A DNA stretch of 64,000 bases from a virus (taxonomy: Duplodnaviria > Caudoviricetes), in the IMG/VR virus record IMGVR_UViG_3300030376_001612, positions 1 to 64,000 of that record, one strand, 5' to 3'. Of this stretch, positions 18,758 through 36,152 are shown piece after piece; the stretch's first letter is position 1, and every line of letters begins with the position of its first letter. Made by a program: the position numbers and the translations under genes. A model generated the notes under the pieces. It was not told the origin of the DNA and did not search any database. It saw nothing but the letters and a program-made list of their open reading frames with translations.

Positions 18758-19011
18758 TAGACTTTGTTTTTATTAAGGCATTCTATTACGCATTTAAGAT
18801 CTTTGTAATCATAAAATGTTACTTCGGCTTCAGGAATTTCTACGGACCACATCTTTTTTTCTTGTCCGTTTCCACTATCATTAGATACAAAACATACGTT
18901 TCCTACGTTATACGTATAGTAATGTATATCTACGTCTAGATTACTTTCTTCTTTTGAAACGATACATTTCTCAAAACCTAATTTTATTATACTATTTTCT
19001 GTCATAGCCAC
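18757..19011 (-). CDS. Hypothetical protein
   Basis: ORF track. Confidence 0.6.
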   Translation of the reverse strand: MAMTENSIIKLGFEKCIVSKEESNLDVDIHYYTYNVGNVCFVSNDSGNGQEKKMWSVEIPEAEVTFYDYKDLKCVIECLNKNKV

Positions 19012-19352
19012 TCTTCTAGTTTTTCATGAATTGACTCAGGATATTTAGTGTTCAGCATATCTTTTAGTACTGCACATTTTTCATACTCTTCAGTCTCTAT
19101 AAAGTAGAGGATCATATTCTCATACTCTTCTTTAGTAGGGCCTACACTAGTATTATGAGCTAGTACGAAGCCAAACTCACTCTCACTGGCCTCTAATACA
19201 TAGTCCATACTAACTTTATTAGTCAAGAACATAAAAGAATTATTATACGCAAAAGAAAGCATTTCATCTTCTTTCTGCATTTCTTCTACAGTCTTCCCGT
19301 AGCCGTAATCTTCTTGTTCTTCCATACCATCCATAGTATTACCCTTATACAT
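19002..19352 (-). CDS. Hypothetical protein with UVR-like C-terminal helix
   Basis: YFIETEEYEKCAVLKD. Confidence 0.55.
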   Translation of the reverse strand: MYKGNTMDGMEEQEDYGYGKTVEEMQKEDEMLSFAYNNSFMFLTNKVSMDYVLEASESEFGFVLAHNTSVGPTKEEYENMILYFIETEEYEKCAVLKDMLNTKYPESIHEKLEEWL

Positions 19353-19415
19353 CCAATATACAAAATTTTTTCCCCACCTAAAAAAAATGTGATGTATTTA
19401 GCATTGGCAAGAGGT

Positions 19416-19445
19416 CCTATTGTTTTGCTCCCCAACTAAATTTTG
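19416..19445 (+). promoter_or_regulatory. Degenerate copy of the CCTA..TTTCTCCC motif
   Basis: CCTATTGTTTTGCTCCCCAACTAAATTTTG upstream of first plus-strand gene. Confidence 0.45.
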
Positions 19446-19446
19446 G

Positions 19447-19463
19447 TAGGGGGGTGCCCCCTA
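19447..19463. other. G/C-tract palindrome at strand switch
   Basis: TAGGGGG-GTG-CCCCCTA in an AT-rich genome. Confidence 0.6.
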
Positions 19464-19498
19464 TCACTAATTAATGTTTAACCTAATAATTTTACACT

Positions 19499-19792
19499 AT
19501 GTACTATTTTAAAATTACTGAGAGCAACAAGGCTCTCATCACAACAGACTCACCACTAGGTGGAGTAGAAACTATCACTAAGAAAGTTGGTGGTAGAGAA
19601 ATGCAAGTCAGACAGCAAGCAGGGAATGGTAATGTCCGCTTTGGATTTACTGCTATAAACCCTGAAGACGGAATGGCTTTAAGAGCAGAACTAAAGGTAG
19701 GAGATGAAATCCAATCATTAGAACTGACTGAGAAAAAGGTAGTGAACCAATCAACAGGAGAAGAATTTGACAACCTGTACTGGGCACACTAA
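19499..19792 (+). CDS. First plus-strand gene, hypothetical
   Basis: 97 aa, monocistronic with own terminator. Confidence 0.7.
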   Translation: MYYFKITESNKALITTDSPLGGVETITKKVGGREMQVRQQAGNGNVRFGFTAINPEDGMALRAELKVGDEIQSLELTEKKVVNQSTGEEFDNLYWAH

Positions 19793-19795
19793 AAG

Positions 19796-19821
19796 AAAGG
19801 GGAACTACATGTTCCCTTTTT
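19796..19821 (+). terminator. Rho-independent terminator
   Basis: GGGAAC-TACAT-GTTCCC-TTTTT. Confidence 0.75.
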
Positions 19822-20152
19822 CACTTATCTAGTTCCAATGTTGGCTTTTGCAACTATTTTGCTATCAAAACAAATTAATTGTGTGTGTTACGCAGTTAAA
19901 GTGAGGCAATATATCCACAAAATACCACCTTTTACCACTAGAATAAAATAAATGCACAGTATATATATAATATAGCTAACGTAAGAGCACAAACATTAAA
20001 TTGGGTTTGGTTCGGAGATTGACAATTGAGATGCAAATCATGAGTCCACGTTATATCACACTCTTATGTTAGCTTATATATAGTATTGTCTCTCTCTTAT
20101 ATGAAGAGTACAGTACCCGCAATATTGTTTAACCCATAATTCACTTACAGTT

Positions 20153-20434
20153 ATGAAAATAAAATATATAAAACCAGGTGCTTTTGTTAAGCACAATAAT
20201 GAGATTGGTGTTACATTAGTAGCATCAAACAATGATGCCGTAGTCAACTTCTTTGATGAGTATGGTGATCATAGAATAGTTCAAGCTCAAGATGTAGAAT
20301 ACCCAGAAGATGTGGAGTTACAGAATGAGTTATTGTTAAACCGTGGACTTAGAGAGTTAGCCTTGAATAATAATCTAATACAGATTGATACTTGGGGTGA
20401 TGATTATCTAAGTCTTGTAATGTCATTTGCCTAA
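20153..20434 (+). CDS. Hypothetical protein
   Basis: ORF track. Confidence 0.6.
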   Translation: MKIKYIKPGAFVKHNNEIGVTLVASNNDAVVNFFDEYGDHRIVQAQDVEYPEDVELQNELLLNRGLRELALNNNLIQIDTWGDDYLSLVMSFA

Positions 20435-20435
20435 T

Positions 20436-20591
20436 ATGAGAAAATTAATGTACGTTGTAGTGGCTCTATTCGTTTTAGGGCCAGTACTAACATCTTGTAG
20501 CTCATCCAGAGGAATGTGTAAAAGTAAAAAGAAATACTATAAAGCACAGAAATGCTGGAATGCTAAGAAGCAAAAGTATACAAGATGCTAA
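20436..20591 (+). CDS. Small basic lipoprotein (51 aa)
   Basis: Own translation MRKLMYVVVALFVLGPVLTSC-SSSRGMCKSKKKYY; lipobox LTSC. Confidence 0.6.
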   Translation: MRKLMYVVVALFVLGPVLTSCSSSRGMCKSKKKYYKAQKCWNAKKQKYTRC

Positions 20592-20601
20592 GCTTAATCA
20601 T

Positions 20602-20639
20602 AGGTATAGCCTACTTACTATTAGTAGGCTTATACCTTT
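20602..20639 (+). terminator. Hairpin/terminator
   Basis: AGGTATAGCCTACT...AGTAGGCTTATACCT-TT. Confidence 0.55.
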
Positions 20640-20657
20640 ACTTACACACTAAATAAT

Positions 20658-21104
20658 ATGAAATATTTATATATCATTGCTTTATCGTTGAGTTTTATTT
20701 CTTGTAACTCTGATGATGACATAGCAATACTTGAGTCAGAAGTATTTATATATACTATTGACCCTAACAAGGAACAGTATGAAGGAGACATGAGTGATTA
20801 CCAGTATCTGTATTTAGCACATACAAGTGATAAATCATGTGAAACTTTAGCTGATTGGACTACTTTTAACTATACATCTAATGGACCATTGTCATATGAA
20901 GACTATTTAATCTATTATTTTCTACCTCCTTACTCTATAGGATATGGTAGTAAACCGGATTATAAAATATTCAGTAACAATATCTATGATATAGAAGTAG
21001 ATTCAACGGAGATCAGTTGCAATAATAATATTGGTGAGTCATTACTCATTACTAATATGAGCACGCTGATTGAGAATGGAGACCTTATTATTAACTTAAA
21101 TTAA
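20658..21104 (+). CDS. Lipoprotein
   Basis: Lipobox FISC followed by NSDDD. Confidence 0.65.
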   Translation: MKYLYIIALSLSFISCNSDDDIAILESEVFIYTIDPNKEQYEGDMSDYQYLYLAHTSDKSCETLADWTTFNYTSNGPLSYEDYLIYYFLPPYSIGYGSKPDYKIFSNNIYDIEVDSTEISCNNNIGESLLITNMSTLIENGDLIINLN

Positions 21105-21109
21105 AAAAT

Positions 21110-21430
21110 ATGGATAGTCCTTTTATTAAGAGGTTACTCAAGTTTATACTTGTGGTACTTCAACCTTTGTGTGCTGTTTGGTTAATCCAAGTAGCAATCA
21201 TTGATTACAGCTGGTTACCTGCACTATGTGTAGCACCAGTAATGTTTCTATCATCAATAGTGCATTTAGCATTACTTGATAGAATTAAAATCTTACCTAG
21301 CATAAAATTTACCAAGAAATCACAGATTGGCTTTTCAATAGGCTTATCATCTAATGGATCTCTTGCAATCTTAGTTCCTTTCTTATACTTAGTAATAAGC
21401 TATAATGAAGATACGGCCCTTGAATTATGA
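21110..21430 (+). CDS. Membrane protein
   Basis: Two to three hydrophobic segments. Confidence 0.55.
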   Translation: MDSPFIKRLLKFILVVLQPLCAVWLIQVAIIDYSWLPALCVAPVMFLSSIVHLALLDRIKILPSIKFTKKSQIGFSIGLSSNGSLAILVPFLYLVISYNEDTALEL

Positions 21431-21613
21431 CACCAGTGTCGTACTAATAATAACATAGTATTATATACTATAATAACATTAGTATTAAGGCTAAAGAATA
21501 ATTGGTTAGGTAAGTGATAACCATTGTGTGAGATGGAGCAGTTACTTATAGTTAGTTTTTGTTTAGTATAATTTTAATTTTTCATGGATACTGCTCCTGA
21601 CCACACATATTTA

Positions 21614-21637
21614 CCTAATTATTTTTCTCCCAAGCGG
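21614..21637 (+). promoter_or_regulatory. Conserved 24-bp motif, copy 1
   Basis: CCTAATTATTTTTCTCCCAAGCGG. Confidence 0.65.
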
Positions 21638-21667
21638 AGATTTGCTAACATTTTAACACTTATAACA

Positions 21668-22450
21668 ATGAAAAATATAATTTATTTACTGTGCTTGATG
21701 ATAAGTATACCTGTATCAGCACAAATTGCAAAATGTCAATCAAGTAAGACTATAAAATGCTTGTATAAAAAGCCTAAGCAGGCTAAGAAGTATGAAAGAT
21801 TTCAAGATGCGTTCTCAGAATGGATAGCAGATCATCCATTAAAGAGAGATGACGTATTAAAATATCATACAGGAGCAATAAAGTATATTGCACCTAATGA
21901 TGTATATGATGCTGTATTTGATTATGAGATTGGCCCTTTAGATTTACATCAGTGTGCAGATGCAGCTATGTATCTATGGGCATCGTATAACTACAGTAAT
22001 GGGCCTGAATTCTATGAAAGACTAGTATTTAATGGTGCAGATGGTACTGAATATAACTATCTAGGCTATTTAGAAACATCAGGTAAAGAAGATAACTGCA
22101 AAACATTCAGAAGATGGCTTGATCTTGTGTGGACTTATGCTAATACATGGTCTATATCAGAATATAACCTTGTTTCTGTACCTATTTGGGATATCCAACC
22201 AGGTGATGTGTTAATTGTAGGTGGTTTTCCTGGGCATGCAGTAAGCGTTGTGGATGTGTTGTTAGACTCTGAGACAGGACATAAGTATTTTATGTTAGCT
22301 CAGAGCTTTATGCCTGCTCAGGAGAATCATATACTTAAAAATCCTGCAACAGGAGATGTGTGGTATGAAATAGAAGCATATATGACACATGTTAGAACAC
22401 CACAATATACGTTTCACATAAATGATTTAAAAAGATGGCGCAACAGATAG
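21668..22450 (+). CDS. Secreted DUF4846-like protein
   Basis: Signal peptide from ATG 21668; DLHQCADA, PGHAVSVVD, LAQSFMPAQE. Confidence 0.7.
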   Translation: MKNIIYLLCLMISIPVSAQIAKCQSSKTIKCLYKKPKQAKKYERFQDAFSEWIADHPLKRDDVLKYHTGAIKYIAPNDVYDAVFDYEIGPLDLHQCADAAMYLWASYNYSNGPEFYERLVFNGADGTEYNYLGYLETSGKEDNCKTFRRWLDLVWTYANTWSISEYNLVSVPIWDIQPGDVLIVGGFPGHAVSVVDVLLDSETGHKYFMLAQSFMPAQENHILKNPATGDVWYEIEAYMTHVRTPQYTFHINDLKRWRNR

Positions 22451-22917
22451 AAGTACCAATACCCTTTGACACTGCATACAAGCTCATTAGAAGTGGGCTT
22501 GTAGAGCATGTCAACAGAGATGCAGTAGCAGAATGCTTAATGGAGACTATGGATAAAGAAAGTATAGCAATAGTTATTATGCTACTGCAAGAATCTGAAC
22601 CATATGTACCTTTACTACCAGGTGATTATGTAAAATTTCACCGTAAATCAGCATACTTTGCAGATAAATATGACACTGATGTCCTTTTAGACATGGGATT
22701 GATGGTTGATGATTATATGTTTGGTAGAATACCATATAAAGATGATTATGGTAATACACCTAAAAGATTTAGTCCAAGACAGAGTGTAGAATTACTTGTT
22801 TATAATAACAAAAAAGAGTATGACACTGAAAATATGAGACTAGATACACATAATCTTACATATGTTGCAGAAGATGACATTCCTTATCTGAAAAACAAAC
22901 GTGCACAAGATATATAA
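22435..22917 (+). CDS. Hypothetical protein
   Basis: ORF track. Confidence 0.6.
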   Translation: MAQQIEVPIPFDTAYKLIRSGLVEHVNRDAVAECLMETMDKESIAIVIMLLQESEPYVPLLPGDYVKFHRKSAYFADKYDTDVLLDMGLMVDDYMFGRIPYKDDYGNTPKRFSPRQSVELLVYNNKKEYDTENMRLDTHNLTYVAEDDIPYLKNKRAQDI

Positions 22918-23155
22918 GAGATTTGGTATAGTTAACTGGGAAGTTATGTCTAATCCTTCTATTAAACCACAAGAAAAAGCATTGTATTCTATATTATGCG
23001 TCTATTGTGGAGATAAAAGAGAGTGTTTCCCATCTATATCAACACTTGCAGATATAATGGACTTGAGTCAGCGTCAAGTAAATAGATTAATAAAAAATCT
23101 TAAGATTCATGGCATTATTGCAAGAAAAGGACGTAAAATCCTTTTATTAGATTAG
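22901..23155 (+). CDS. Helix-turn-helix protein (HTH_36-like)
   Basis: EKALYSIL...CFPSISTLADIMDLSQRQVNRLIKNL. Confidence 0.75.
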   Translation: MHKIYKRFGIVNWEVMSNPSIKPQEKALYSILCVYCGDKRECFPSISTLADIMDLSQRQVNRLIKNLKIHGIIARKGRKILLLD

Positions 23156-23239
23156 TGCGTTAGCTATTATTATGCTAACTATTTACCAATTGAGCCGGTA
23201 ATATACACTATTAAACCAGTAAGACTGTATAATTTTTGT

Positions 23240-23247
23240 TACTTTTG
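23240..23247 (+). promoter_or_regulatory. Bacteroidota -7 element (TACTTTTG)
   Basis: TAnnTTTG 21 nt before ATG 23269. Confidence 0.5.
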
Positions 23248-23268
23248 ATTTGACTCAGATGTAATAAG

Positions 23269-23544
23269 ATGATACTACAACTCCCAAATGGCAGAATTAT
23301 AGAATGTTCGGTAGAACAGTACTTATCTATGTCAGATCAGGAGATAAAAGACCTTAATGGTATTGGCTCAGCATATACAAAAGAAGTAGGTAACCCATTT
23401 TATGGTTTGTATGCTAATACAACGTTAGCACGCAAAGAAGCTATGGAAGATATGAAGTCAGAAAGGGAATATGAACCCAGACTAGATGAAGTATCTGATG
23501 TAGATAAAATGAATGATGACTACTTTCACTCAGATGATATCTGA
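23269..23544 (+). CDS. Hypothetical protein
   Basis: ORF track. Confidence 0.65.
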   Translation: MILQLPNGRIIECSVEQYLSMSDQEIKDLNGIGSAYTKEVGNPFYGLYANTTLARKEAMEDMKSEREYEPRLDEVSDVDKMNDDYFHSDDI

Positions 23545-23578
23545 TTAATCAATTTTTTCACCTTTTAATATTTTAATT

Positions 23579-24172
23579 ATGTCAACAGTCAAAATTATGG
23601 CTGATGAACTAGGCAATGTAATTCGCCAGTCATCAAACAATCCTGAGTTTGGATACATCAGACTCACACAAAAAAGAAGAGTTATTAAACCTAATAACTT
23701 TGTAGACGTCAAAAATCTATCAACATTAATCCACGGTAAACTAGAAGATCTGGAAGCTACAGGCCTACAGCATACAAAAGAGATATCCGGTAAGATATAT
23801 GTTATAGAACAAGTAACACCATTCAGTGAAGAAAACCCTGATAGGGATCTTAAATACGCTGGTACAACAGGAGTTATATGTGCAACCCAAGATGGGGAAC
23901 CTATTTATAGGAAAACATTCTATACAGAAGACCAGAATGTATCTGACACATTGATTGCTCATGCTAATGGTGATGCTATTAGAGAAGCTAACGGTACCTC
24001 AGCTAAGATTATGAAGGAAGTAAATGAAAAGCAAGTGGATTTAGAAGATTCAATTGCTGAAGTTGAAGGAGAAACAGAGGTAACAGATACACTTGTATCT
24101 GAAACAGAGGTAGTTGCTGAAACTCCTGTAGAAATTACAGAGGATGAGGGCATTGAGTCCTTTGATCTGTAG
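23579..24172 (+). CDS. Hypothetical protein with acidic tail (possible ssDNA-binding)
   Basis: Beta-rich core, acidic tail ending ESFDL. Confidence 0.5.
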   Translation: MSTVKIMADELGNVIRQSSNNPEFGYIRLTQKRRVIKPNNFVDVKNLSTLIHGKLEDLEATGLQHTKEISGKIYVIEQVTPFSEENPDRDLKYAGTTGVICATQDGEPIYRKTFYTEDQNVSDTLIAHANGDAIREANGTSAKIMKEVNEKQVDLEDSIAEVEGETEVTDTLVSETEVVAETPVEITEDEGIESFDL

Positions 24173-24287
24173 TATCTACTCATTATAAATACAAAAATCA
24201 TTTGTGCTAGCACTTATGCTTGATCATACGGTTTGGAGCCCGGTATTTATATTTATCACTTATGTATAACCCTATAATAATAATAAT

Positions 24288-24806
24288 ATGTTTAATCCAC
24301 AACAAATACAATCACTGAAACAACATCAAATAGAACAGTCAATTATAGATACAGAAAAAAGACTAAACTATTATGGTATACTATCAGAATACCAGTTACA
24401 TCCTAAAGATTTAGTTCAAAACTTGAGCTATCGTAAACTTAATCCGTATCAACACTTTTTGTTTAAACGTGTACTACATGGTTTAAACATGTATAATGCT
24501 GAAGATAAGGCTAAGTTACATTGGGATAAGAAAAGAAGGATAACAAGAGTATGGAAACGTGCTCAAAAGGAAATAAATAATTGGAAACAAATTATTTGTA
24601 ATAAGAAAGTAAATGCTTATTTTAGAGAGACATTTACAGGGCCTACTGCTGAGTATATTATATCTATACCACCAGAGGAAACATTAGAAAATTTTACTAA
24701 TACTATGACACTAAGAGATCTTGGAATTACATATGAAGACGTAATACTTAGATTTATGCAGAAAGGATTATTACCAAGAACATTCTTAACGTTGAAAGCA
24801 GCATGA
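24288..24806 (+). CDS. Hypothetical protein
   Basis: ORF track. Confidence 0.65.
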   Translation: MFNPQQIQSLKQHQIEQSIIDTEKRLNYYGILSEYQLHPKDLVQNLSYRKLNPYQHFLFKRVLHGLNMYNAEDKAKLHWDKKRRITRVWKRAQKEINNWKQIICNKKVNAYFRETFTGPTAEYIISIPPEETLENFTNTMTLRDLGITYEDVILRFMQKGLLPRTFLTLKAA

Positions 24807-25228
24807 AAATTAAGAAGAAACTATGCTATAGTTGTGATACTGAGCAAGTTATATGGAAGAATCATGAAGGTAATAAGTATTGTAAAATCTGTTGGTTTAA
24901 AATTAAACAAGAAGATAATTTTAAATCAGATTACTATAGAAAATATAGTAAACCTAGACAAAAGATTAAATCTATGTCTAATAAGATGCAGAAAACTGAG
25001 AGGGCTTACAGCGTATTACGCAAAGCCTTCTTAGAACAGCATCCTGTATGCAAAGCCAGCTTAGTTAAATGCACGGTTAAAGCTACAGATGTGCATCATA
25101 TGAAGGGAAGGGGTAAATATCATCTTGATACTACTACATGGCTTGCAGTGTGCAGACCATGTCATATGTTTATAGAAGAGAACCCTGATCTTGCTAATGA
25201 ATTTGGATTTTCAAAATCAAAACTATGA
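24803..25228 (+). CDS. HNH-like nuclease with Zn fingers
   Basis: C...ATDVHHMKGRG...LAVCRPCHMFIE. Confidence 0.7.
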   Translation: MKIKKKLCYSCDTEQVIWKNHEGNKYCKICWFKIKQEDNFKSDYYRKYSKPRQKIKSMSNKMQKTERAYSVLRKAFLEQHPVCKASLVKCTVKATDVHHMKGRGKYHLDTTTWLAVCRPCHMFIEENPDLANEFGFSKSKL

Positions 25229-25301
25229 ATAATAATAAAAAAGACTGGAACTGGTTTGCAATAATAACCTGGTCTATAATACTTTTATTTACATATACAC
25301 T

Positions 25302-26429
25302 ATGGAAGTACATAATAAAACTGTTCCTGTGAATAAAGATAGGGATGTTATACAAAAAGATGCATTGTCTATAGCAGTGCAGCATAAAAGATGTGGTCTT
25401 GGGATATCAATGGGTGTAGGTAAAACACGTATTGCTATAGAGCACCTCAAAAGAAATTATCATCCCCTTATACAAGTACTTGTAGTAGTGCCTAAGAATA
25501 CAGTTAAGCAATCATGGATTGATGAACTTAAAAAAATGAAGGCTTTACATCTAAGAGGGCATATTATATTTAGTACATATCTCTCTTTAAATAAACAAAA
25601 TCCAAATGAATATGATATTGTTTATTTAGATGAGTGTCATAGCCTATTAGAATCACATAAAAGTTTCTTAGATGCTTTTAACGGTAAGATACTTGGCCTT
25701 ACAGGTACACCGCCAAGAGTAAAAACAAGTGAGAAAGGACGTATGGTAGCAAAGTATTGTCCTATTAAATACACTTTTTCAGTTGATGATGCAACTGATT
25801 CAAAGATCTTAAATGATTACCAAATCATTGTACACCAACTTGAGTTGTCTGACTTAAAAACATTAAAGAAGAAAACTAAAGATGGTAGGCAATGGTATAC
25901 TTCAGAGAAGAAAGACTACGCATATGTAGTACAAAGAGTAGTGGCAGCTCAGACTCAGAAACAAATGCAGTTTGCATCTATAATGAGAATGAGAGCACTG
26001 ATGGATTACAGTACAAAAGAAACCTATGTAAAGGACCTACTTAGGAAAGTAAAAACAAAGTGTATTGTATTTGCAAATACTATGGATCAGGCTGATAGAG
26101 TCTGCAGGCATAGTTATCATTCAAAAAATCCAAACTCTGAAGATAATCTTCAATTATTTAGTGATGGACGGATAGATAAACTATCTTGTGTATTACAACT
26201 TAATGAGGGTGTTACTATTCCAGGCCTAAAGCAAGGCATTATTATGCATGCATATGGTAATGAAAGGAAGACAGCACAAAGAATTGGTAGATTATTAAGG
26301 TTAAATCCATCAAATACTGCAGTGTGTCACATATTGTGTTATAAAAATACACAAGATGAGACTTGGGTAGCCAAAGCACTAAAGGATTTTGATGAAAATA
26401 AAATCAAATATTATAATCCAACAATATAA
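25302..26429 (+). CDS. Superfamily II helicase
   Basis: MGVGKT, DECH, LTGTP, QRIGRLLR. Confidence 0.85.
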   Translation: MEVHNKTVPVNKDRDVIQKDALSIAVQHKRCGLGISMGVGKTRIAIEHLKRNYHPLIQVLVVVPKNTVKQSWIDELKKMKALHLRGHIIFSTYLSLNKQNPNEYDIVYLDECHSLLESHKSFLDAFNGKILGLTGTPPRVKTSEKGRMVAKYCPIKYTFSVDDATDSKILNDYQIIVHQLELSDLKTLKKKTKDGRQWYTSEKKDYAYVVQRVVAAQTQKQMQFASIMRMRALMDYSTKETYVKDLLRKVKTKCIVFANTMDQADRVCRHSYHSKNPNSEDNLQLFSDGRIDKLSCVLQLNEGVTIPGLKQGIIMHAYGNERKTAQRIGRLLRLNPSNTAVCHILCYKNTQDETWVAKALKDFDENKIKYYNPTI

Positions 26430-26432
26430 TTT

Positions 26433-26669
26433 ATGGGAAAAATGAAAGAAATTTTCATGGAAATGGTTGAACATGAATATAATGGGTCACATGATGCATT
26501 TATTCAAGACATGGCCAAACAAACTTGTGAGGAGTTTGTTCCGTGGAATCAAGATACATGTTTAAATTGTAACAACACAACTATGGAACGTAATGAAACT
26601 GAGGCAAGATGCTTAGCATGTGGTCATGAGTTTATTTATGTTGACGGTGAAGTTTTAAGATTTAAGTAA
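26433..26669 (+). CDS. Zn-ribbon protein
   Basis: CLNC...CLACG. Confidence 0.55.
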   Translation: MGKMKEIFMEMVEHEYNGSHDAFIQDMAKQTCEEFVPWNQDTCLNCNNTTMERNETEARCLACGHEFIYVDGEVLRFK

Positions 26670-27013
26670 TGAACAAGATAATACTAATAATAGCATTTCA
26701 TATTTCAGTTACGGCAACTATATATCATGCAGTTCCTGCACAGACAGATAGCACACCGTTTATTACGGCATCTAACAAGGTTATTAATAAAGATAATCCT
26801 GGTAAACATAGATGGATTGCAGTATCCAGAGACTTAGAAGCATTAGGATTTACATTTGGAGCACGTGTATGTGTAGAGAATGCAGGGCCAATGAACGGGT
26901 ATTGGATAGTGCAAGACAGAATGAACAAAAGATGGTCTTATAGAATAGACTTCTTAGTTGATGAGTCTATGAAAGGTGGCAAATGGGAGAATGTTAAAAT
27001 ATATTTAGAATAA
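26669..27013 (+). CDS. 3D-domain (lytic transglycosylase-like) protein
   Basis: TATIYH...QTDSTPFITAS, IAVSRDL, VQDRM, RIDFL; N-terminal hydrophobic stretch. Confidence 0.7.
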   Translation: MNKIILIIAFHISVTATIYHAVPAQTDSTPFITASNKVINKDNPGKHRWIAVSRDLEALGFTFGARVCVENAGPMNGYWIVQDRMNKRWSYRIDFLVDESMKGGKWENVKIYLE

Positions 27014-27014
27014 T

Positions 27015-27296
27015 ATGCAAAAGAGAATACATACCGTAGAGATAACAGAAAAATTTTGGGTTGACGTTTATTACAACTATGAACCAGGAGAACCAGAAGT
27101 ACATACATATGCTAATGGTGATCCTGGTCATCCTGGTAGTGCATCAACTGTAGAAATTGTACAGATCAGAGCATTATGCAAAGATAGAAATGGTAATAGT
27201 GTTGACGTAGACATATTACCTTATCTAGAATTGTTTGATGATTTAGATCCATGGATGCTAGAAGATAAAATACTAAAAGAACATAATGAAGAATAA
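27015..27296 (+). CDS. Hypothetical protein
   Basis: ORF track; YEPGEP...GDPGHPG. Confidence 0.6.
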   Translation: MQKRIHTVEITEKFWVDVYYNYEPGEPEVHTYANGDPGHPGSASTVEIVQIRALCKDRNGNSVDVDILPYLELFDDLDPWMLEDKILKEHNEE

Positions 27297-27669
27297 CCTA
27301 CATGCAAGACTAGTGGTAAACAATGGTAAGCTTGACTTTCCTAGTAAGCCACAAGAAACTAGATTTAATGCATTTCTAAAAGAGATACCTGATGGTACAC
27401 CAATAGATATATTTATGGGTGTAAGTACGGATAAGGGTAGCAATGCTCAGCTTGCTAGAGTACATGCTATGATCCGTGAGCTTGCACAATATATAGGATA
27501 TACTTTTGAAGAAGTAAAACTACAAACAAAAAGAAAAGCAGGATTATGCTTTGTTAGAGATAAGCAGGAGTATTGCAAAAGTTTTGCAGAGTGTGATAGG
27601 GACGAACTAAATTTAGTAATTCAAGCTCTTGTAGAAATGGGAGACTTCAATGGAATGCAGTTAAGATAA
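27286..27669 (+). CDS. NinB/YbcN-like protein
   Basis: SNAQLARVHAMIRELAQYIGYTFEEVK. Confidence 0.45.
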   Translation: MKNNLHARLVVNNGKLDFPSKPQETRFNAFLKEIPDGTPIDIFMGVSTDKGSNAQLARVHAMIRELAQYIGYTFEEVKLQTKRKAGLCFVRDKQEYCKSFAECDRDELNLVIQALVEMGDFNGMQLR

Positions 27670-28089
27670 TTATTTATCTTTCTTTGCTGCTTCTTGTTTA
27701 GCCTGTATATCTGCAAAGAACTCTTTATATAAATCAGTTTGTGTAGCAGTATCATTTTCAAGTATACTCTTTGTAAGTTTACCTAATAAGTCTGTATCCA
27801 TTTCAACATCAGACTCTTGATAAAGACCCTGGTCATTAGCATATGCAGCAAAAGTTTGTAGTAAAGAATAAATGATCCATGTGTGGTATTCATACCATTT
27901 AAGATCTAATTTCTTTTCATCTAACTCACCGCTAAGCATTCTTTTGAACTTGTTTAGTGTGGCTGATACATCTTCTGACTTAGGATACACTTGATCAATA
28001 TAGTATAACATTATTGATTGCAGTGCAGGAATATAATCTGAATGAACAGTAATACCTGTGATTGATTTTTTTTCTAATTGTTTTGCCAT
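27670..28089 (-). CDS. Hypothetical protein, antisense to its block
   Basis: 139 aa, fills gap exactly, no plus-strand ORF there. Confidence 0.65.
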   Translation of the reverse strand: MAKQLEKKSITGITVHSDYIPALQSIMLYYIDQVYPKSEDVSATLNKFKRMLSGELDEKKLDLKWYEYHTWIIYSLLQTFAAYANDQGLYQESDVEMDTDLLGKLTKSILENDTATQTDLYKEFFADIQAKQEAAKKDK

Positions 28090-28111
28090 GAGGTAAAAAT
28101 ATTTAAAATTT

Positions 28112-28798
28112 ATGAATGAACCAAATATATTATATATAATTAATAAAATAAAAGAAAAAGTGAGTAGCTCAGATTGGGCACCTCACTTACAACCGTGGCT
28201 TGATTCAGCTGATCACTACAATGTCGTAAAAGCCTTAAAATCAGCTAATGAATCAGGAGTAAGATTTACTCCAAGGTATGGTGATGCTTATAATGCATTC
28301 CTACATTGCCCGGTTAAACAACTGAAGGTTGTGATGATAGGGCAAGACCCCTATCCTCAGCCTGACGTTGCTGATGGAATAGCATTTAGCTGTAGCAAGA
28401 AGGGTAAACCTGAGGCTAGTTTACGCTATATATTTAAAGCGCTAGATACACCGGATGCAAATCCAGATCTAAAGAGATGGGCTGAACAAGGCGTGCTACT
28501 ACTTAATACGGCTATGACAGTAGAGGTAGGTAATATTGGTTCTCATTATGAAATGTGGAAACCTTTTACATCTTCTCTCCTTACAGAGATTAGCAACATG
28601 GACCCACAGATTTGTGTTGTTGGTCTGGGTAAAAAAGCACAAGAATGGTTAGGTTACTTTCCCTTCGCACATAAAATAGAAGTGTCTCACCCAGCTAGTG
28701 CTGCCTATCGTAAAGGTGGAACGTGGGACCATCAGAACGTATTCAATCGTATAAATGAATACTTAACTTGGCAAGGAAAAGACTTGATTAAGTGGTAA
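28112..28798 (+). CDS. ung: Uracil-DNA glycosylase (family 1)
   Basis: VVMIGQDPYP, GIAFS, QGVLLLN, SHPAS. Confidence 0.9.
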   Translation: MNEPNILYIINKIKEKVSSSDWAPHLQPWLDSADHYNVVKALKSANESGVRFTPRYGDAYNAFLHCPVKQLKVVMIGQDPYPQPDVADGIAFSCSKKGKPEASLRYIFKALDTPDANPDLKRWAEQGVLLLNTAMTVEVGNIGSHYEMWKPFTSSLLTEISNMDPQICVVGLGKKAQEWLGYFPFAHKIEVSHPASAAYRKGGTWDHQNVFNRINEYLTWQGKDLIKW

Positions 28799-28814
28799 GC
28801 TTTTCGTATATTTG
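28784..28814 (+). promoter_or_regulatory. Bacteroidota promoter (TTG-N20-TATATTTG)
   Basis: -33/-7 pair upstream of 28835. Confidence 0.6.
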
Positions 28815-28834
28815 ATAACCTTTAAAACCAATAT

Positions 28835-29425
28835 ATGTGGGACTTTTTTCAGATAATTACTAAGTCTGGTATGACTCCAAATGAGTGTCTTTCACTCTTT
28901 GCAGTACATATGAAGATTACACCTCACTATGGTAATAATATCAATAGTTTAATAAACAAAGGATTAATTGAATTTGATGATAAAAAACAGCATTATGTAA
29001 TTACAAATGATGCTAAAGATATTATGACCAAGTTAGACAACTATTTTCTTAAAGCAAAAAAGAAAACGGATATACAACTTTTGGGAAAAGACTTTGTAAC
29101 ATTAATTAATGATTACAGAGAAATATTCCCAGCTAAGAAATTACCTAGCGGTAAACCTGCAAGAAATAATGTAAAAGCTTTAGGCACAGCATTCAGATGG
29201 TTCTTTGAAACCTATAGTTATGATTGGGCCACTATATATAAAGCTACTAAGATGTATGTAAATGAATACAGAGACAAAGATTATTTATATATGCAGACAA
29301 GTCAATATTTTATTAGTAAACAAGATAAACACAAGGTAAAACATTCTACTCTTGCTGATTATTGTGATATGATACTAGAAGGTATTGACACAGAAGATGA
29401 ACATTTTAAAGAAAAAGTAGTATAA
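28835..29425 (+). CDS. Replication protein coupled to DnaB (initiator/loader candidate)
   Basis: wHTH-like N-terminus; stop overlaps DnaB start. Confidence 0.5.
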   Translation: MWDFFQIITKSGMTPNECLSLFAVHMKITPHYGNNINSLINKGLIEFDDKKQHYVITNDAKDIMTKLDNYFLKAKKKTDIQLLGKDFVTLINDYREIFPAKKLPSGKPARNNVKALGTAFRWFFETYSYDWATIYKATKMYVNEYRDKDYLYMQTSQYFISKQDKHKVKHSTLADYCDMILEGIDTEDEHFKEKVV

Positions 29426-30381
29426 TGGCAAAAGCAAAAGAAGCTTGGGTAGGGCAATACGCTGCCTTCAATGAAGCACTTAAGTATATGTACCGTAGAC
29501 AAACCGGTGAGGAAAAGTCTATATATACTCCTTGGCCTAAGTTTAATGATGCTACAACTGATGGATTAGAATGGAATACTCTTACAGTTATAGGTGGTAG
29601 ACCTGGTTCAGGTAAAACACTTATTAAAGATCAGATAGTAAGAGAATCATTTGTATTAAATCCAGCAGATGACTTTAGAGTATTAGAGTTTCAGTTTGAG
29701 ATGGTTGGTAGAACCTCAGCAATTAGAGAGTTCTCATCAATCACAGGTAAAACATATAAAGAATTATGTAGTGCCGGTAGTAAACTAAAGACAGATATTC
29801 TAAATAAATGTCATGCTTATGCTAAAGAAAGGGTCAAGCACCCTGTAGATATAGTAAGTAAACCTTTGACTGTAAATCAAATGCGTGATCAGATAGATAT
29901 GTATATGAATTTACATAAGGGTGCTAAAACTATAATAACACTAGATCATACCATGCTTGTTAAAAGAGCACCTTATCAGAATAGTAGCTTAGATATGCTA
30001 TTTGAGTTAGGTGAATTCTTTACACAGACAAAGCGTGAGTATCCATGTTTGTTTGTTGTTATCTCACAATTAAATAGAAACATTGATAACCCTGACAGGG
30101 CTGTTGATGGTAAGTATGGTAACTATGTACTTGAGTCAGACATATTTGGCTCAGATGCAATGTTACAACATGCTGATACATTAATTGGTATAAATAGACC
30201 AGCAAAACAAAAGATTAGATTCTATGGGCCAGATAGGTATATCATAGAAGATGATAGAACTCTTGTATTACATTTCTTGAAAGCAAGAAACGGTGATGCT
30301 AGAATGAGTTTCTTCAAGGCTAAATTTGAACAAATGGAAATAGCTGAGATGAAAACACCTGAACAACAGCAACGGAGATAA
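29425..30381 (+). CDS. dnaB: DnaB-like replicative helicase (C-terminal domain only)
   Basis: GGRPGSGKT, FEM, ISQLNR, LKARNG. Confidence 0.9.
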   Translation: MAKAKEAWVGQYAAFNEALKYMYRRQTGEEKSIYTPWPKFNDATTDGLEWNTLTVIGGRPGSGKTLIKDQIVRESFVLNPADDFRVLEFQFEMVGRTSAIREFSSITGKTYKELCSAGSKLKTDILNKCHAYAKERVKHPVDIVSKPLTVNQMRDQIDMYMNLHKGAKTIITLDHTMLVKRAPYQNSSLDMLFELGEFFTQTKREYPCLFVVISQLNRNIDNPDRAVDGKYGNYVLESDIFGSDAMLQHADTLIGINRPAKQKIRFYGPDRYIIEDDRTLVLHFLKARNGDARMSFFKAKFEQMEIAEMKTPEQQQRR

Positions 30382-30382
30382 A

Positions 30383-30406
30383 CCTATTTATTTTTCTCCC
30401 CAGCTG
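30383..30406 (+). promoter_or_regulatory. Conserved 24-bp motif, copy 2
   Basis: CCTATTTATTTTTCTCCCCAGCTG. Confidence 0.65.
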
Positions 30407-30432
30407 CTAGTTGCACGTTTAAAAATTATTAA

Positions 30433-30963
30433 ATGATAAGTACTAAAAATAAAAGTTATATGTCACCAGATGAAAGAAAAGCAAAAGTTAAAAAGTTGCG
30501 TGAGACACACCAAGCGTGGTTTAATGACAACAAGTTAACTGATGCACTATACATACCTAAGATGGCTTACAGGCCACCTGGTAAGGATGAACTGCATGTC
30601 AGCTTCTTTCCTAGTGAACTAGAGAAAGATGAAGACGTGTACACTGAATTTGTAAGTATTGATTATGAATCAGAAGACCCAAAAAGGACTTTATATCTAC
30701 ATAAACGTAATTCACATTGGCGTGAAGAATATGAATTAGTAGAGAGTAAGTCTGGTTATCAAAGACATTTGATACCGGTCAGTGAATTAGTAGTGATTAG
30801 AGATATCACAGACAATGCAGCAAAAGTTATAGAAGACTTTGCTAACTTGCCTGATCCTGATAATAAAAAAGATCCTACTGTTAAAGATGTGCTTGGAGAG
30901 ATTAATGCTTCTTTACAAGCTATAAATAAAACAATGTATCACATATTAAATAAAATGAATTAA
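30433..30963 (+). CDS. Hypothetical protein
   Basis: ORF track. Confidence 0.65.
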   Translation: MISTKNKSYMSPDERKAKVKKLRETHQAWFNDNKLTDALYIPKMAYRPPGKDELHVSFFPSELEKDEDVYTEFVSIDYESEDPKRTLYLHKRNSHWREEYELVESKSGYQRHLIPVSELVVIRDITDNAAKVIEDFANLPDPDNKKDPTVKDVLGEINASLQAINKTMYHILNKMN

Positions 30964-31647
30964 ATGGCACAATCTGTATTAATTATTGCTGACTCAGGCA
31001 CAGGTAAATCAACAAGTATGAGACACCTAGATCCTAAGTCAACTGTTATAATCAACATTGCTAATAAGCCTTTACCTTTTAAGGGCTGGAAGAGCAAGTA
31101 TACTGTAATGAACAAAGATAATCCAAAGGGTAATCTTGTAGCTGTTTCATCTGCTGCTGGTATAGGCAAAGCAATGAAACATGTAAATGATAATATGCCT
31201 CACATCAAGACATTAGTTGTTGATGACTGGCAATATATGAGTTCTTTTGAATACTTTGATAGAGCAAATGAGAAAGGCTATGATAAGTTCACTCAAATAG
31301 CGGCTAACCTTGCACAAATAGCAAAGATGCCTAAAGATATGAGAGATGACCTTACTATATATTTCTTAACTCACTCAGAAGATTCAACTGATATTAATGG
31401 TAACCGTAGAGTTAAAGCAAAAACTGTTGGTAAAATGATAGATAATGCATTAACTTTGGAAGGTCTCTTTAGTATTGTCCTATTTGGGAAAGTAGTAAAG
31501 GATGACAAAGGTGTATATCATTATGGGTTTGATACCCAAAACAATGGAGAAAACACATGTAAATCTCCAATGGGTATGTTTGAAGATTCATTCATACCAA
31601 ATGATCTTGCATACGTGAATAAATGCATAGATGAGTATAATAATTAA
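30964..31647 (+). CDS. AAA_24/Sak4-like P-loop ATPase
   Basis: ADSGTGKST, LVVDD, KAKTVGKM, TCKSPMGMF. Confidence 0.8.
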   Translation: MAQSVLIIADSGTGKSTSMRHLDPKSTVIINIANKPLPFKGWKSKYTVMNKDNPKGNLVAVSSAAGIGKAMKHVNDNMPHIKTLVVDDWQYMSSFEYFDRANEKGYDKFTQIAANLAQIAKMPKDMRDDLTIYFLTHSEDSTDINGNRRVKAKTVGKMIDNALTLEGLFSIVLFGKVVKDDKGVYHYGFDTQNNGENTCKSPMGMFEDSFIPNDLAYVNKCIDEYNN

Positions 31648-31669
31648 TTAATTAAAATTTAAAGAAAGT

Positions 31670-32347
31670 ATGTTAAGTACAAAAGACATGTCCGCTGGAA
31701 GCGGCAGAGTAAAACCAGTAATGGGTTCAGGTAACAATGTTATCAGAATCAACAGTGTAACATTTGATGTTACTCCATATGATGCAGATGCATATAATAT
31801 TGTATTACATGTAGAAGGTAAACCAGAAGAAGGAGAATTCCAAGGTTTCTTGAAAGATGTAGCTAATCCAGAAGGCCCAAGATATGAAGGTCAAGTTGGT
31901 AGAATTAGATTTGCTCCATATCCATACAAGGATACTACATTACCAAGTGGTGTAGAAATATCTAGAGATAATGAAGTACTTAAAGCTATGATTTATCTTA
32001 GTGAAGTACTAAATAAAAGAGATGCTTTAGATAAGATTGAGGCAAATACCATAGAAGACTTTATGGTTGAGTGCAATAAGTTATTCTCTAACAGTGAGTT
32101 CTTTAATGCTTGTATTGGCGGTAGAGAGTGGGAAAACAAAGACGGTTATGTAAACCTAGATCTGTTCTTACCACGTATGTCAAAAGATGGGATACCATTA
32201 GAAGCTCTAAATAAAGAGAACAGCAGACTACTAACATTCAATGAAAAGGATCACTTGAGAAGAATTCAAAAGAAAGAAAGTTCTTCTACAGGTAGTTTTG
32301 AGCCAGCAAAGACAACAGTAAATGCTGGTGATGACTTTGATTTGTAA
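31670..32347 (+). CDS. Putative single-stranded DNA-binding protein
   Basis: Between Sak4-like ATPase and primase; acidic GDDFDL tail. Confidence 0.55.
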   Translation: MLSTKDMSAGSGRVKPVMGSGNNVIRINSVTFDVTPYDADAYNIVLHVEGKPEEGEFQGFLKDVANPEGPRYEGQVGRIRFAPYPYKDTTLPSGVEISRDNEVLKAMIYLSEVLNKRDALDKIEANTIEDFMVECNKLFSNSEFFNACIGGREWENKDGYVNLDLFLPRMSKDGIPLEALNKENSRLLTFNEKDHLRRIQKKESSSTGSFEPAKTTVNAGDDFDL

Positions 32348-32361
32348 ATATTAATAATGAT

Positions 32362-32396
32362 AAGGGGTGGTTTTCGTGGTTGACTTCCACCCTTTT
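32362..32396 (+). terminator. Terminator-like hairpin
   Basis: GGGTGG...CCACCC-TTTT. Confidence 0.55.
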
Positions 32397-32419
32397 GATT
32401 TATTTATTATATTTATAGA

Positions 32420-33397
32420 ATGCTAAATACAAAAAACTTAGTATCAAGAGAATCAAATGTACCTAGTTATTGGGTATTCCAACACTATCTAACACTATCA
32501 GAAACACTTACGGGTCAAGACATTAAAATTAAATCTGTATTTAATCCTACTGAGAGAACACCATCAATGTGTATCTTTGTAGACAAATCTATAATGCAGT
32601 ATAAATTTAAATGCTTTTCTACTGGTAAGTATGGAAGTAAGATAGATCTTGTGAAAGAATTGTTTAGTATAGATTATTCACAAGCAGTAACCCGGATAGT
32701 AGAAGACTATAATAAATATGCTAAGACAAACGGATCTGGTAAAACAGATTTTAAAATAGCTGCAAAATGGAAAGTTGACTTTATAAAAGAAAGAAGTTGG
32801 TTTGACATTGACGCTGAATATTGGCTAGCATATAATATTGGCAGTAGTTTATTAAAGGAATATAACGTTAGACCTATAGACTACTACAATATGGTCAAAG
32901 AAGATGATGGTGAAATCAAATCATTACAAATTAAAGGTAAACACATGTATGGTTACTTTGATAAAGAAGGTAATATCTATAAGATATATCAACCTCTATC
33001 AAAAAGGCATAAGTTTCATAAGGTTAAACCCTATTTACAAGGATATGACCAATTGAAATTCAATCAGCCTTATTTAGTTATATGTTCATCACTTAAAGAT
33101 GCAATGTGTCTTAAGAGCTTTGGGTTCAAACTTGAAGTAATTGCACCTGACAGTGAGAATACAATAATAAAACCGTATATTGTTGAAAATTTAAAGAAGA
33201 AGTATAAGAAAGTAATAACATTGTTTGACAATGATGAAGCAGGCAAAAAAGCTATAGATAAGTATAAAGAGATGTATAACTTAGATGGCTGCTCACTGAA
33301 TAATTGTAAAGATATTTCAGATGCTGTAAAGCAACACTCTGCACAAACAATTGCACATTCTCTTAGATCTCTTTTAATAACAACCTTAAAACAATAG
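32420..33397 (+). CDS. dnaG: DNA primase (TOPRIM)
   Basis: ERTPS, SSLKDAM, FDNDEAG, KDISD. Confidence 0.85.
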   Translation: MLNTKNLVSRESNVPSYWVFQHYLTLSETLTGQDIKIKSVFNPTERTPSMCIFVDKSIMQYKFKCFSTGKYGSKIDLVKELFSIDYSQAVTRIVEDYNKYAKTNGSGKTDFKIAAKWKVDFIKERSWFDIDAEYWLAYNIGSSLLKEYNVRPIDYYNMVKEDDGEIKSLQIKGKHMYGYFDKEGNIYKIYQPLSKRHKFHKVKPYLQGYDQLKFNQPYLVICSSLKDAMCLKSFGFKLEVIAPDSENTIIKPYIVENLKKKYKKVITLFDNDEAGKKAIDKYKEMYNLDGCSLNNCKDISDAVKQHSAQTIAHSLRSLLITTLKQ

Positions 33398-33399
33398 TT

Positions 33400-33870
33400 A
33401 TGAAGTGGTTTATACCAGGTAATGTACCAAGTAGTAAGAACGGAAGAAGATGGACAGGCAAATATTTTATTGCAAGTAAGACTGTAATGAATTATAGAAA
33501 GAAAACAAAACAGTATTTTGAACAATATGGTCCTTTGTTTGCAAAGGAACTTGAAAAATACAAACTCCCTGTCAAAATAGCTTTCACTTTTATTAGAGGT
33601 ACAAGACACAAGTTTGATTATATAAATCCTGCACAAACAATACAGGATGATATGGTTAAGCACGGATGGATTGAAGATGATGATATGAATCATATAGTAC
33701 CAGTGTTCCCTGAATACAGGTATGACAAAGTAAATCCAGGTGTATTTATAGAAATCTTAAAAGAAGAAGAAGAAAATGTACAATCAAAAGGACATAGAAA
33801 AGACAAACATATTAAAGACAGCACTACTTCAAAAGCTAAAAGATCAAGGAATAGCAGAAATACAAATTAA
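33400..33870 (+). CDS. RusA-like Holliday junction resolvase
   Basis: VPSSKN, FDYINPAQTIQD...WIEDDD. Confidence 0.7.
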   Translation: MKWFIPGNVPSSKNGRRWTGKYFIASKTVMNYRKKTKQYFEQYGPLFAKELEKYKLPVKIAFTFIRGTRHKFDYINPAQTIQDDMVKHGWIEDDDMNHIVPVFPEYRYDKVNPGVFIEILKEEEENVQSKGHRKDKHIKDSTTSKAKRSRNSRNTN

Positions 33871-34249
33871 TTTCTCTGGTTCTGGTGACAGTGGGGATAT
33901 AGATGAAGTAGAATATATAGACATGAATGGACTTAGTTCATGGCAACAAGGGTATCAAGGCCCTGAGAATCCAAATGAAACTGAAGATCAAATAAGAGAC
34001 CTATTCTATGATAAGGTAGATTATGAAGCGTGTAAGCACGGTGACTGGGTAAATAATGAAGGAGGTTATGGTAACTTGACTATAAATACAGATACCGGTT
34101 CATTTGAGCTTCAGTATTATCAAAGAACTGTAGAGTCTTATACAAGTGAAGGTGACTCAGTGTTTGATAAATTTGACAACAGTTTTGATGATATACCATT
34201 ACAATATAAAGTAAGGATGGGTCAGCTGCCTGGTACATACCAGCAGTAG
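33776..34249 (+). CDS. DUF6878-like protein
   Basis: FSGSGDSGDID, DWVNNEGGYG. Confidence 0.65.
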   Translation: MYNQKDIEKTNILKTALLQKLKDQGIAEIQINFSGSGDSGDIDEVEYIDMNGLSSWQQGYQGPENPNETEDQIRDLFYDKVDYEACKHGDWVNNEGGYGNLTINTDTGSFELQYYQRTVESYTSEGDSVFDKFDNSFDDIPLQYKVRMGQLPGTYQQ

Positions 34250-34259
34250 ATTTTTTTGT

Positions 34260-34283
34260 CCTATTTATATTTCTCCCTAGCTG
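34260..34283 (+). promoter_or_regulatory. Conserved 24-bp motif, copy 3
   Basis: CCTATTTATATTTCTCCCTAGCTG. Confidence 0.65.
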
Positions 34284-34303
34284 AAATTTGATAATTTATT
34301 TAT

Positions 34304-34651
34304 ATGGCACACCCGCTACTACACAGCAAGAGTTCTTGCAGGAAGTGGGGTGGACAAACTAGTGACTATGAACCAATACATAATTGGTTTGATGACACTA
34401 AAAGATGGTTGGGTCACTCTAATCACCGTATGTTCCGCCACCACTCTGAAGGGATCTTTGAAGCAGAACAAATATTTGGAAAAAGTTTTATCAACTCAGA
34501 TGGTAAAACAGTATATACAAGATATGTTGGAGAACAACATGTAAAAGAAGATTGCAATGGTTATATACCATCTGCAAAAGAATGGATGACATGTATAATG
34601 GGTAATGTCAGACCTAAATGGATGAGAAAAGCCCAACTAATTAATGATTAA
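34304..34651 (+). CDS. DUF6915-like His-rich protein
   Basis: MAHP..HSKSS, IHNWFD, HR..RHHSEG, EQHVKED. Confidence 0.7.
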   Translation: MAHPLLHSKSSCRKWGGQTSDYEPIHNWFDDTKRWLGHSNHRMFRHHSEGIFEAEQIFGKSFINSDGKTVYTRYVGEQHVKEDCNGYIPSAKEWMTCIMGNVRPKWMRKAQLIND

Positions 34652-35001
34652 TGGAAAAAGAAGATTTTAAGAATATACAAGCACTATTGAATGGTGCACC
34701 TGATGATTATGAGATTGCATTATCTAATATTAAAAATATGAAACCTCATGAAATCTTTATACTATTACTTGGCAAAGACCTTGTAAGTGAGAAACGCGCT
34801 AATTTTATTAAAGAGTTTCCTGCAATAAATTGGCCTGAAGGTAAAGACTTTACTTATAGGGCTTTATATAAAAGATGTAAGAATATGCCACCTAAAGTAC
34901 AGGAGGTTTTTACAGATATAATATCTAGACAAATATACAATGGATATTTGTGTGAGACATTTGAATTTGTAGAAGAACTAAAAATAGAGATAAAATGGTA
35001 A
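34651..35001 (+). CDS. Hypothetical helical protein
   Basis: ORF track; translationally coupled. Confidence 0.6.
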   Translation: MEKEDFKNIQALLNGAPDDYEIALSNIKNMKPHEIFILLLGKDLVSEKRANFIKEFPAINWPEGKDFTYRALYKRCKNMPPKVQEVFTDIISRQIYNGYLCETFEFVEELKIEIKW

Positions 35002-36146: not shown

Positions 36147-36152
36147 AATAAA

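Follow-up and report, generated by a model that had tools for sequence, protein, structure and literature searches.

What reads a short intergenic sequence that recurs, almost unchanged, ahead of replication genes in an uncultured marine phage? The question is raised by IMG/VR record IMGVR_UViG_3300030376_001612 (109,954 bp, rated 95% complete), whose first 64 kb are the stretch of DNA analysed here and are referred to as the window. Positions below are those of the window unless the genome or another contig is named. Metagenome matches to the phage come from Tara and other marine samples. A first-pass annotation of the window had proposed that the sequence, a 24-bp motif with a CTCCC core, is the promoter of an RNA polymerase (RNAP) carried in the virion. 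The motif is probably a promoter of some kind. It may well be read by the virion RNAP as a phage-specific promoter of the rightward gene block, although this second step is tentative and proceeds by analogy.

Three copies of the motif, sites 1, 2 and 3 (table 1), are exact pattern matches on the plus strand, with 0.00 expected from 100 dinucleotide shuffles. A position weight matrix (PWM) built from them scores the three at 38–40 on the whole genome, both strands included, and the next best place at 13; the pattern and PWM scans of the whole genome gave no further strong copy on either strand. A fourth copy, site 0, is weak against this three-copy matrix because its A/T tract is one base shorter. 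An all-instance profile (R1), built from 34 distinct motif instances, recovers it at 31.4 bits (E 1e-7). Scanned over 556 kb (both strands of this genome, four relatives and phage phi14:2), the profile returned 11 sites only, all of them known, all in the sense orientation and all inside the rightward block. The minus-strand blocks are free of copies, here and in the four relatives. The first-pass annotation was therefore right on the three near-identical copies and on their absence from the minus-strand late block, and the wider scan that it had called for reveals nothing random in strand or position. Its degenerate copy at 19416–19445 is a true fourth member, better placed at 19416–19438. 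The four copies are all intergenic and occur only in the rightward replication block. As had been claimed, they lie on the plus strand; the stated distance of 20–55 nt before an ATG fits three of them, which end 30, 26 and 20 nt before the start codons at 21668, 30433 and 34304, and not site 0 as now placed, where the gap to the ATG at 19499 is 60 nt (53 nt from the earlier end, 19445). The motif shows neither dyad symmetry nor direct repeats. It is itself unstructured (fold z-scores −0.2 to −1.7) and free of internal covariation, and no Rfam match was obtained at E up to 1 over 19000–35000.

The recognition block can be written CCTAWTTATWTTT-CTCCC-N-AGC, and the core present in all lineages is TTK-CTCCC-N-A-R-C. 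Conservation resumes beyond the block. A 37-column alignment, together with hand counts, identifies a G 11 nt past the A of AGC that is invariant in 36/36 instances, and the three bases preceding it vary. A GC-rich hairpin opens at site 0 either with this G or one base before it. The hairpin occurs in every lineage and is built from different stems: TAGGGG/CCCCTA, GGCAGGT/ACCCGCC, TGCGTGG/CCCCGCA and TCAGGG/CCCTGA. RNAalifold gave it only a weak consensus because indels shift the stems, and single-sequence folds were used instead. Since the covarying hairpin starts at the invariant G, this base is the candidate +1; the alternative start is the AG of AGC. Transcripts beginning at the invariant G would have leaders of 14–24 nt at sites 1–3 and a 5′-terminal hairpin at site 0. 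No hairpin is common to the four sites: sites 1–3 fold no better than shuffles, and that of site 0 is located downstream of the motif. A sigma-54 reading (GG-N10-GC) was rejected by inspection.

Conservation was followed in four relatives of 72–80% nucleotide identity, and additional sites were collected from IMG/VR and metagenome contigs through an exact 22-mer. The closest relative has CCTATAATATTTCTCCCCAACTA at site 0, the canonical ATTTCTCCCC form. Genome G001 (114 kb) carries the same four sites in the same order. In G005, sites 0 and 2 read TTTTGCTCCCGAGCTG and TTGTGCTCCCCAGCTG, and sites 1 and 3 retain only CTCCC. Genomes G006 and G008 have site 0 only; their sites 2 and 3 are without a spacer because the neighbouring genes abut or overlap, and site 3 is without the motif. 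The invariant G is found in the site 0 forms of G005 and G008 as well. Site 2 is present in 9 of the 15 relatives retrieved by means of the 176-aa protein encoded downstream of it, the other six having overlapping genes and no spacer. The motif is missing from a lineage whose 176-aa protein is 60% identical. The head of the block thus has a copy, site 0, that all lineages retain, whereas the internal copies are limited to a single sublineage. Across orthologous groups the motif is 86–96% identical, compared with 40–50% in the 25 nt upstream. The site 1 orthologues (eight distinct instances) reach 96%, against 50% in that flank. Among the paralogous sites of this genome the values are 83–92% for the motif and 20–36%, the random level, for the upstream flanks.

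The genome setting is that of a crAss-like phage. The portal protein (phrog_6547, E 8e-91), the large terminase subunit TerL (phrog_6681, E 4e-62) and the major capsid protein (phrog_11589, E 4e-33) are of crAss type and lie in a single leftward structural block. A tblastn search with TerL gave crAss-like phages of gut, Flavobacterium and Cellulophaga as top matches, at 25–26% identity and E values down to 4e-43. Just past the window, on the minus strand at genome positions 65373–72815, is a 2480-aa open reading frame (ORF) with the sequence GADFDIDKL at residue 1475. Its residues 1116–1546 resemble the catalytic subunit of the crAssphage RNAP (E 4e-7), and DFDID is the catalytic motif of gp66, the virion polymerase of phi14:2 (bioRxiv 10.1101/2020.03.07.982082). 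The phage is thus crAss-like and encodes a predicted giant polymerase of the crAss DFDID type. The motif is conserved in relatives that carry this enzyme, in the sense direction and only in the early (replication) module. A PDB sequence search with two giant ORFs returned nothing, and a PHROGs search with the giant ORFs was uninformative. Megablast of 16 kb of the window against GenBank phages gave no match. The rightward block (19.5–46.9 kb) is the replication module, encoding an SNF2-type helicase, UDG, a DnaB-like helicase, Sak4, primase, RusA and DNA polymerase. It also includes an 84-aa ORF with an HTH_36 domain (22901–23155), whose match is limited to the winged helix at the N terminus of phage replication initiators (O-like or DnaD-like); instead of a regulator of transcription, the product may be an initiator that is short or split. 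No tRNA was found in a search of the window; an intergenic tRNA-like sequence lies upstream of the SNF2-type helicase gene in G006 (4038–4129) and in G008 (reoriented, 19011–19102).

Two further kinds of promoter-like sequence occur in the same genome. In the leftward blocks, the box TTTTGTATATTAT precedes leftward genes at eight intergenic sites, without exception on the minus strand. It resembles the middle promoters of phi14:2, TTG-N19-TAnnTTTGTA, as read off the genome sequence of that phage. These are transcribed by the sigma-70-type RNAP and are rifampicin-sensitive in vivo (bioRxiv 10.1101/2020.03.07.982082). Boxes of the host type, TAnnTTTG, precede some rightward genes too (23240, 28807, 41485, 46001 and 53646), and a host-type pair TTTG-N19-TATATTTA is found at 45026–45056. 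The CTCCC motif lacks both TTTG and TAnnTTTG at promoter spacing. The first-pass annotation had drawn the same distinction, and both kinds of box upstream of other genes bear it out. Judged by sequence, the CTCCC motif is a third, separate class of predicted promoter, present at four places in the replication block only.

The case for promoter function is a good one: it draws on where the copies lie and how they are oriented, on the terminator-like hairpin just ahead of site 3, on phylogenetic footprinting and on confinement to the replication block. If the enzyme is that of the virion, the following sequence of events may be proposed. (i) The crAss-type RNAP, namely the 2480-aa DFDID protein, would be delivered with the virion and would read the recognition block. 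(ii) An 8-nt, mostly A/T stretch would separate the block from the invariant G, which would serve as +1. (iii) Site 0 would head the block in every lineage, its transcript opening with the stable 5′-terminal hairpin. (iv) Sites 1–3 would be internal copies gained in one sublineage, where units would restart, in some cases behind a terminator-like hairpin. In its full form the proposal is a possible one, to be held more loosely: the 22-nt CCTAWTTATWTTTCTCCCNAGC, the 8-nt A/T spacer and the G start might constitute the first sequence-defined promoter of a crAss-type virion RNAP, with an ancestral copy plus hairpin and later internal copies. Two precedents speak for the virion enzyme. The early class of phi14:2 comprises the whole replicative module, is rifampicin-resistant and is transcribed by the virion enzyme (bioRxiv 10.1101/2020.03.07.982082). 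Phage P23-45, whose virion RNAP is likewise a two-barrel enzyme, has one strongly conserved motif at 14 start sites (bioRxiv 10.1101/2022.12.01.518664).

Several observations weigh against assigning the motif to the virion enzyme. Early 5′ ends have been mapped in one crAss-like phage only, phi14:2, where they share no common upstream motif (bioRxiv 10.1101/2020.03.07.982082), and a profile search of both strands of the phi14:2 genome did not find the present one. There are only four copies in a 27-kb block that also holds host-type boxes (those at 23240, 28807, 41485 and 46001), and a single copy suffices in G006 and G008. The 5′ half of the motif, TATWTTTC, is one base off the host −7 box. 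The replication genes of crAss001, which are like the genes downstream of the motif here, form a middle class (PMC8375218). Site 0 moreover needs an invariant 20-mer directly 5′ of it, TATTTAGCATTGGCAAGAGG, which has no counterpart at the other sites. Finally, because many instances were gathered by pattern, part of the conservation at positions 14–22 (the CTCCC-N-AGC core) reflects ascertainment; the set obtained with the 176-aa protein, which escapes this bias, gives the same picture. What the first-pass annotation had said of the background agrees with these data: a DFDID ORF is present in this crAss-like phage, and in phi14:2 the corresponding module is read by the virion enzyme. Of its central proposal, the promoter-like function and the crAss-like phage with a DFDID polymerase stand, and the choice of polymerase proceeds from analogy and from unlikeness to host boxes. 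Its suggestion that the motif defines an early regulon does not hold for the regulon as a whole, as host-type TAnnTTTG boxes also lie within the block. What the motif precedes are genes of replication and accessory function, not those typical of the immediate-early class. The other function that it had offered, operator of a phage regulator, is without support, since dyad symmetry is lacking and no regulator of transcription was detected in the block.

The motif might instead be read by the host RNAP as a middle-class promoter. The host enzyme would act by itself on the −7-like TATWTTTC, or else together with a factor, be it an alternative sigma or a phage product, that recognizes CCTA and CTCCC-N-AGC, and transcription would start at the AG of AGC, 7 nt past the box. 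This is an unlikely explanation, albeit one with a coherent basis: positions 7–14 match the Bacteroidota −7 element TAnnTTTG at 7/8 bases, site 0 variants read TTGTTTTG or GATTTTG, the conserved AG lies at the expected start distance, host-type boxes occur elsewhere in the block, and replication genes are middle genes in crAss001. Set against this, the −33 element (TTG/TTTG, 17–21 nt upstream) is absent from the four sites and their orthologues, and the final G of TTTG is replaced by C in 27/27 instances of sites 1–3. The 22–24 contiguous conserved bases, CCTA and CTCCC included, exceed the conservation of sigma-A promoters. Two scans of 185,579 species' genomes gave 0 matches to the 22-mer and seven scattered matches to a 20-mer, which is the chance level, with no enrichment in hosts. 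Searches of the block detected neither a sigma factor nor a regulator of transcription. A different explanation dispenses with initiation at the motif altogether. Four units transcribed from further upstream would share a DNA operator or a 5′-leader RNA element for protein binding, processing or translation control. The fixed position just before start codons would suit a leader element, the conserved 20-mer 5′ of site 0 could hold the real promoter, and hairpins containing CCNAGC form in some instances (CCAAGC-taat-GCTTGG at site 3 of G001; TCTCC-caagc-GGAGA at site 1). Such motif-overlapping hairpins are not common to the sites, however, and the motif is without symmetry, structure or covariation. 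Site 3 moreover directly follows a hairpin and U7 run, and the only helix-turn-helix protein of the block has the winged helix of a replication initiator. A non-promoter role is accordingly improbable.

One further connection comes from outside phages. Two marine contigs that are not from phages contain the complete 22-mer (L074:561–582 and L070:246–267, minus strand). Contig L074 holds a retron, whose reverse transcriptase matches retron models at E 1e-95 and has homologues in marine Flavobacteriaceae chromosomes; related retron contigs are L100 (3881–3907), L104 and L106. The 22-mer lies between the msr hairpins and the msd stem, and its CCCTA base-pairs with TAGGG further downstream. Orthologues of the retron, retrieved through the protein, have a canonical host promoter, a1/a2 repeats and three covarying msr hairpins, followed by ...ATTTTTCTCCCTAG at the 5′ base of the msd stem, where they share the 17 nt TTTATTTTTCTCCCTAG. 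Because the retron copy is internal to a non-coding RNA (ncRNA), it is no evidence that a host polymerase reads the motif, and these two matches outside the clade were rejected as host-promoter use. Mimicry may exist between the phage motif and the retron, in either direction, and the primary role of the motif would then lie in phage–defence interplay. That role is very improbable. About 1–3 chance matches to a 22-mer are expected in such a collection by a base-composition estimate, the segment inside the ncRNA pairs with TTTAGGG and has no such context in the phage, and nothing connects the retron to this phage. Coincidence is the economical reading.

The units downstream of the four sites, and the features around them, are collected in table 1. 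Site 0 occupies a divergent intergenic region and has no gene upstream on its own strand. One contig of an unrelated, Firmicutes-type phage (L052) also contains the 20-mer TATTTAGCATTGGCAAGAGG, a match that was dropped because 19 specified bases put it at chance level. Searches for more distant relatives through the first gene of the block, as a single protein and as an alignment, returned the same small clade only. Past this gene and its terminator, 360 nt (19793–20152) contain no ORF and are partly conserved in relatives; the stretch is reminiscent of a pair of non-coding regions that phi14:2 reportedly expresses early and at high level. A second shared leader, ATCACT..TGT(T/A)TAACC..TAATAA, stands behind a GC-rich hairpin at 19467–19489 and at 24251–24275, and relatives retain ATATCACTT at the latter place. 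The 183 nt of non-coding sequence 5′ of site 1 (21431–21613) include a clade-conserved block, ..attagtattaaggctaa..ggttaggtaagtgataacc.., and a long inverted repeat, TGTGTGAGATGGAGCAGT / ACTGCTCCTGACCACACA. The region folds as three hairpins with a z-score of only −1.5. The DUF4846 gene downstream of site 1 starts at 21668 and not at the ORF start, 21584, as relatives align from the methionine at 21668. In G001-type relatives a small AACCC-UUUU-GGGUU hairpin lies 5′ of site 2; the upstream hairpins in relatives, this one included, are not individually significant. Relatives also have a conserved non-coding element of about 100 nt 5′ of primase (..ccaggtgcttactggtgtcagtccagacgtggcagc..gcgtgaccaaggccc..), at 41508–41634 in G001 (reoriented), 36395–36498 in G005 and 26315–26435 in G008 (reoriented). 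The equivalent place in the window (32348–32419) has a simple terminator hairpin in its stead. A generic sigma-70 and terminator scan stayed at shuffle level and was discarded.

Table 1. Motif sites and surrounding features (window coordinates unless genome is stated).
Feature	Position	Strand	Remarks
Invariant 20-mer TATTTAGCATTGGCAAGAGG	19395..19414	+	Directly 5′ of site 0; identical or 1 change in 10/10 distinct relatives
Site 0, variant motif CCTATTGTTTTGCTCCCCAACTA	19416..19438	+	Head of rightward block; 31.4 bits; in every clade lineage; invariant G at 19445
GC-rich hairpin after site 0	19444..19466	+	−16.4 kcal/mol, z −2.45; no U run after
First gene of rightward block, 97 aa	19499..19792	+	No family match; conserved in clade
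Terminator-like hairpin after first gene	19795..19821	+	−14.5 kcal/mol, z −4.2
Site 1, CCTAATTATTTTTCTCCCAAGCGG	21614..21637	+	37.6 bits; 8 distinct orthologous instances; invariant G at 21644
DUF4846 gene, downstream of site 1	21668..22450	+	Pfam E 7e-50
Site 2, CCTATTTATTTTTCTCCCCAGCTG	30383..30406	+	Starts 1 nt past stop of DnaB-like gene; invariant G at 30413
Unit downstream of site 2: 176-aa protein, Sak4-like annealing protein, 225-aa protein	30433..32347	+	
Terminator-like hairpin and U7 run	34225..34256	+	−17.7 kcal/mol, z −2.56; ends 3 nt before site 3
Site 3, CCTATTTATATTTCTCCCTAGCTG	34260..34283	+	36.5 bits; 7 distinct orthologous instances; invariant G at 34290
Unit downstream of site 3: DUF6915, 116-aa protein, DUF2201 metallopeptidase/VWA, ATPase	34304..37433	+	
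Leftward host-type box TTTTGTATATTGG of the divergent region	19355..19367	−	One of 8 minus-strand TTGTATATT boxes
Leftward TTTTGTATATTAT boxes	1726, 3101, 19363, 53618, 53683; genome 86688, 102190, 103116	−	

Known phage promoters offer partial parallels. The early promoters of N4 are likewise a few near-identical, phage-specific signals before early units, unlike host promoters and read by a polymerase contained in the particle. N4 promoters form a hairpin with a 5–7-bp stem and a 3-nt loop upstream of the start. In the present phage no hairpin is common to the four sites, and the sequences are unrelated. The polymerases differ as well, that of N4 being T7-like and that of crAss phages a two-barrel enzyme. 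A review likens the crAss programme to that of N4 (PMC10136315). The AT-rich pre-early promoters of P23-45, read by gp96, are similar in that a virion-delivered two-barrel RNAP is matched with one strongly conserved, contiguous motif, and related phages with the P23-45-type enzyme also have the motif (bioRxiv 10.1101/2022.12.01.518664). They differ in number (14 sites versus four) and in host, family and sequence. Their starts have been mapped by ONT-cappable-seq and their occupancy by chromatin immunoprecipitation sequencing (ChIP-seq), while the motif described here is known from sequence alone.

The closest comparison is with phi14:2 and its gp66. Common to both phages are the DFDID polymerase, the genome layout, the rightward genes (Sak4, primase, DnaB, UDG, RusA and SNF2 helicase) and the host-type leftward promoters. 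Missing from phi14:2 are a common motif at early 5′ ends and the present motif itself. The Bacteroidota sigma-A promoter (−33 TTTG, −7 TAnnTTTG) has a likeness in the A/T-rich TATWTTTC, at a plausible distance from AG and ATG. It differs in that the phage motif has no −33 element, ends its box in C rather than G, carries CCTA and CTCCC-N-AGC in addition and has copies that are far more identical. With promoters of T7-type RNAPs the motif has in common some 23 nt of contiguous conserved sequence, a short A/T run behind it and, if the proposed +1 is correct, a G start. Their sequence is unrelated, and no T7-like polymerase gene is present among the ORFs searched.

The sole crAss-type enzyme studied, gp66 of phi14:2, was active in vitro only on single-stranded or denatured DNA and gave no promoter consensus. 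In the literature searched, no paper or preprint defines a promoter for a crAss-type virion polymerase, and a 2023 review (PMC10136315) mentions none. If the host enzyme reads the motif, it would represent an unusual flavobacterial promoter class with a C-rich core. If it is read by the virion enzyme, a candidate signal so short and so sharply conserved, with its proposed +1 and from a lineage common in marine metagenomes, would supply a defined template for in vitro initiation and for structural work, and the motif would also be a means to predict early units in uncultured crAss-like genomes.

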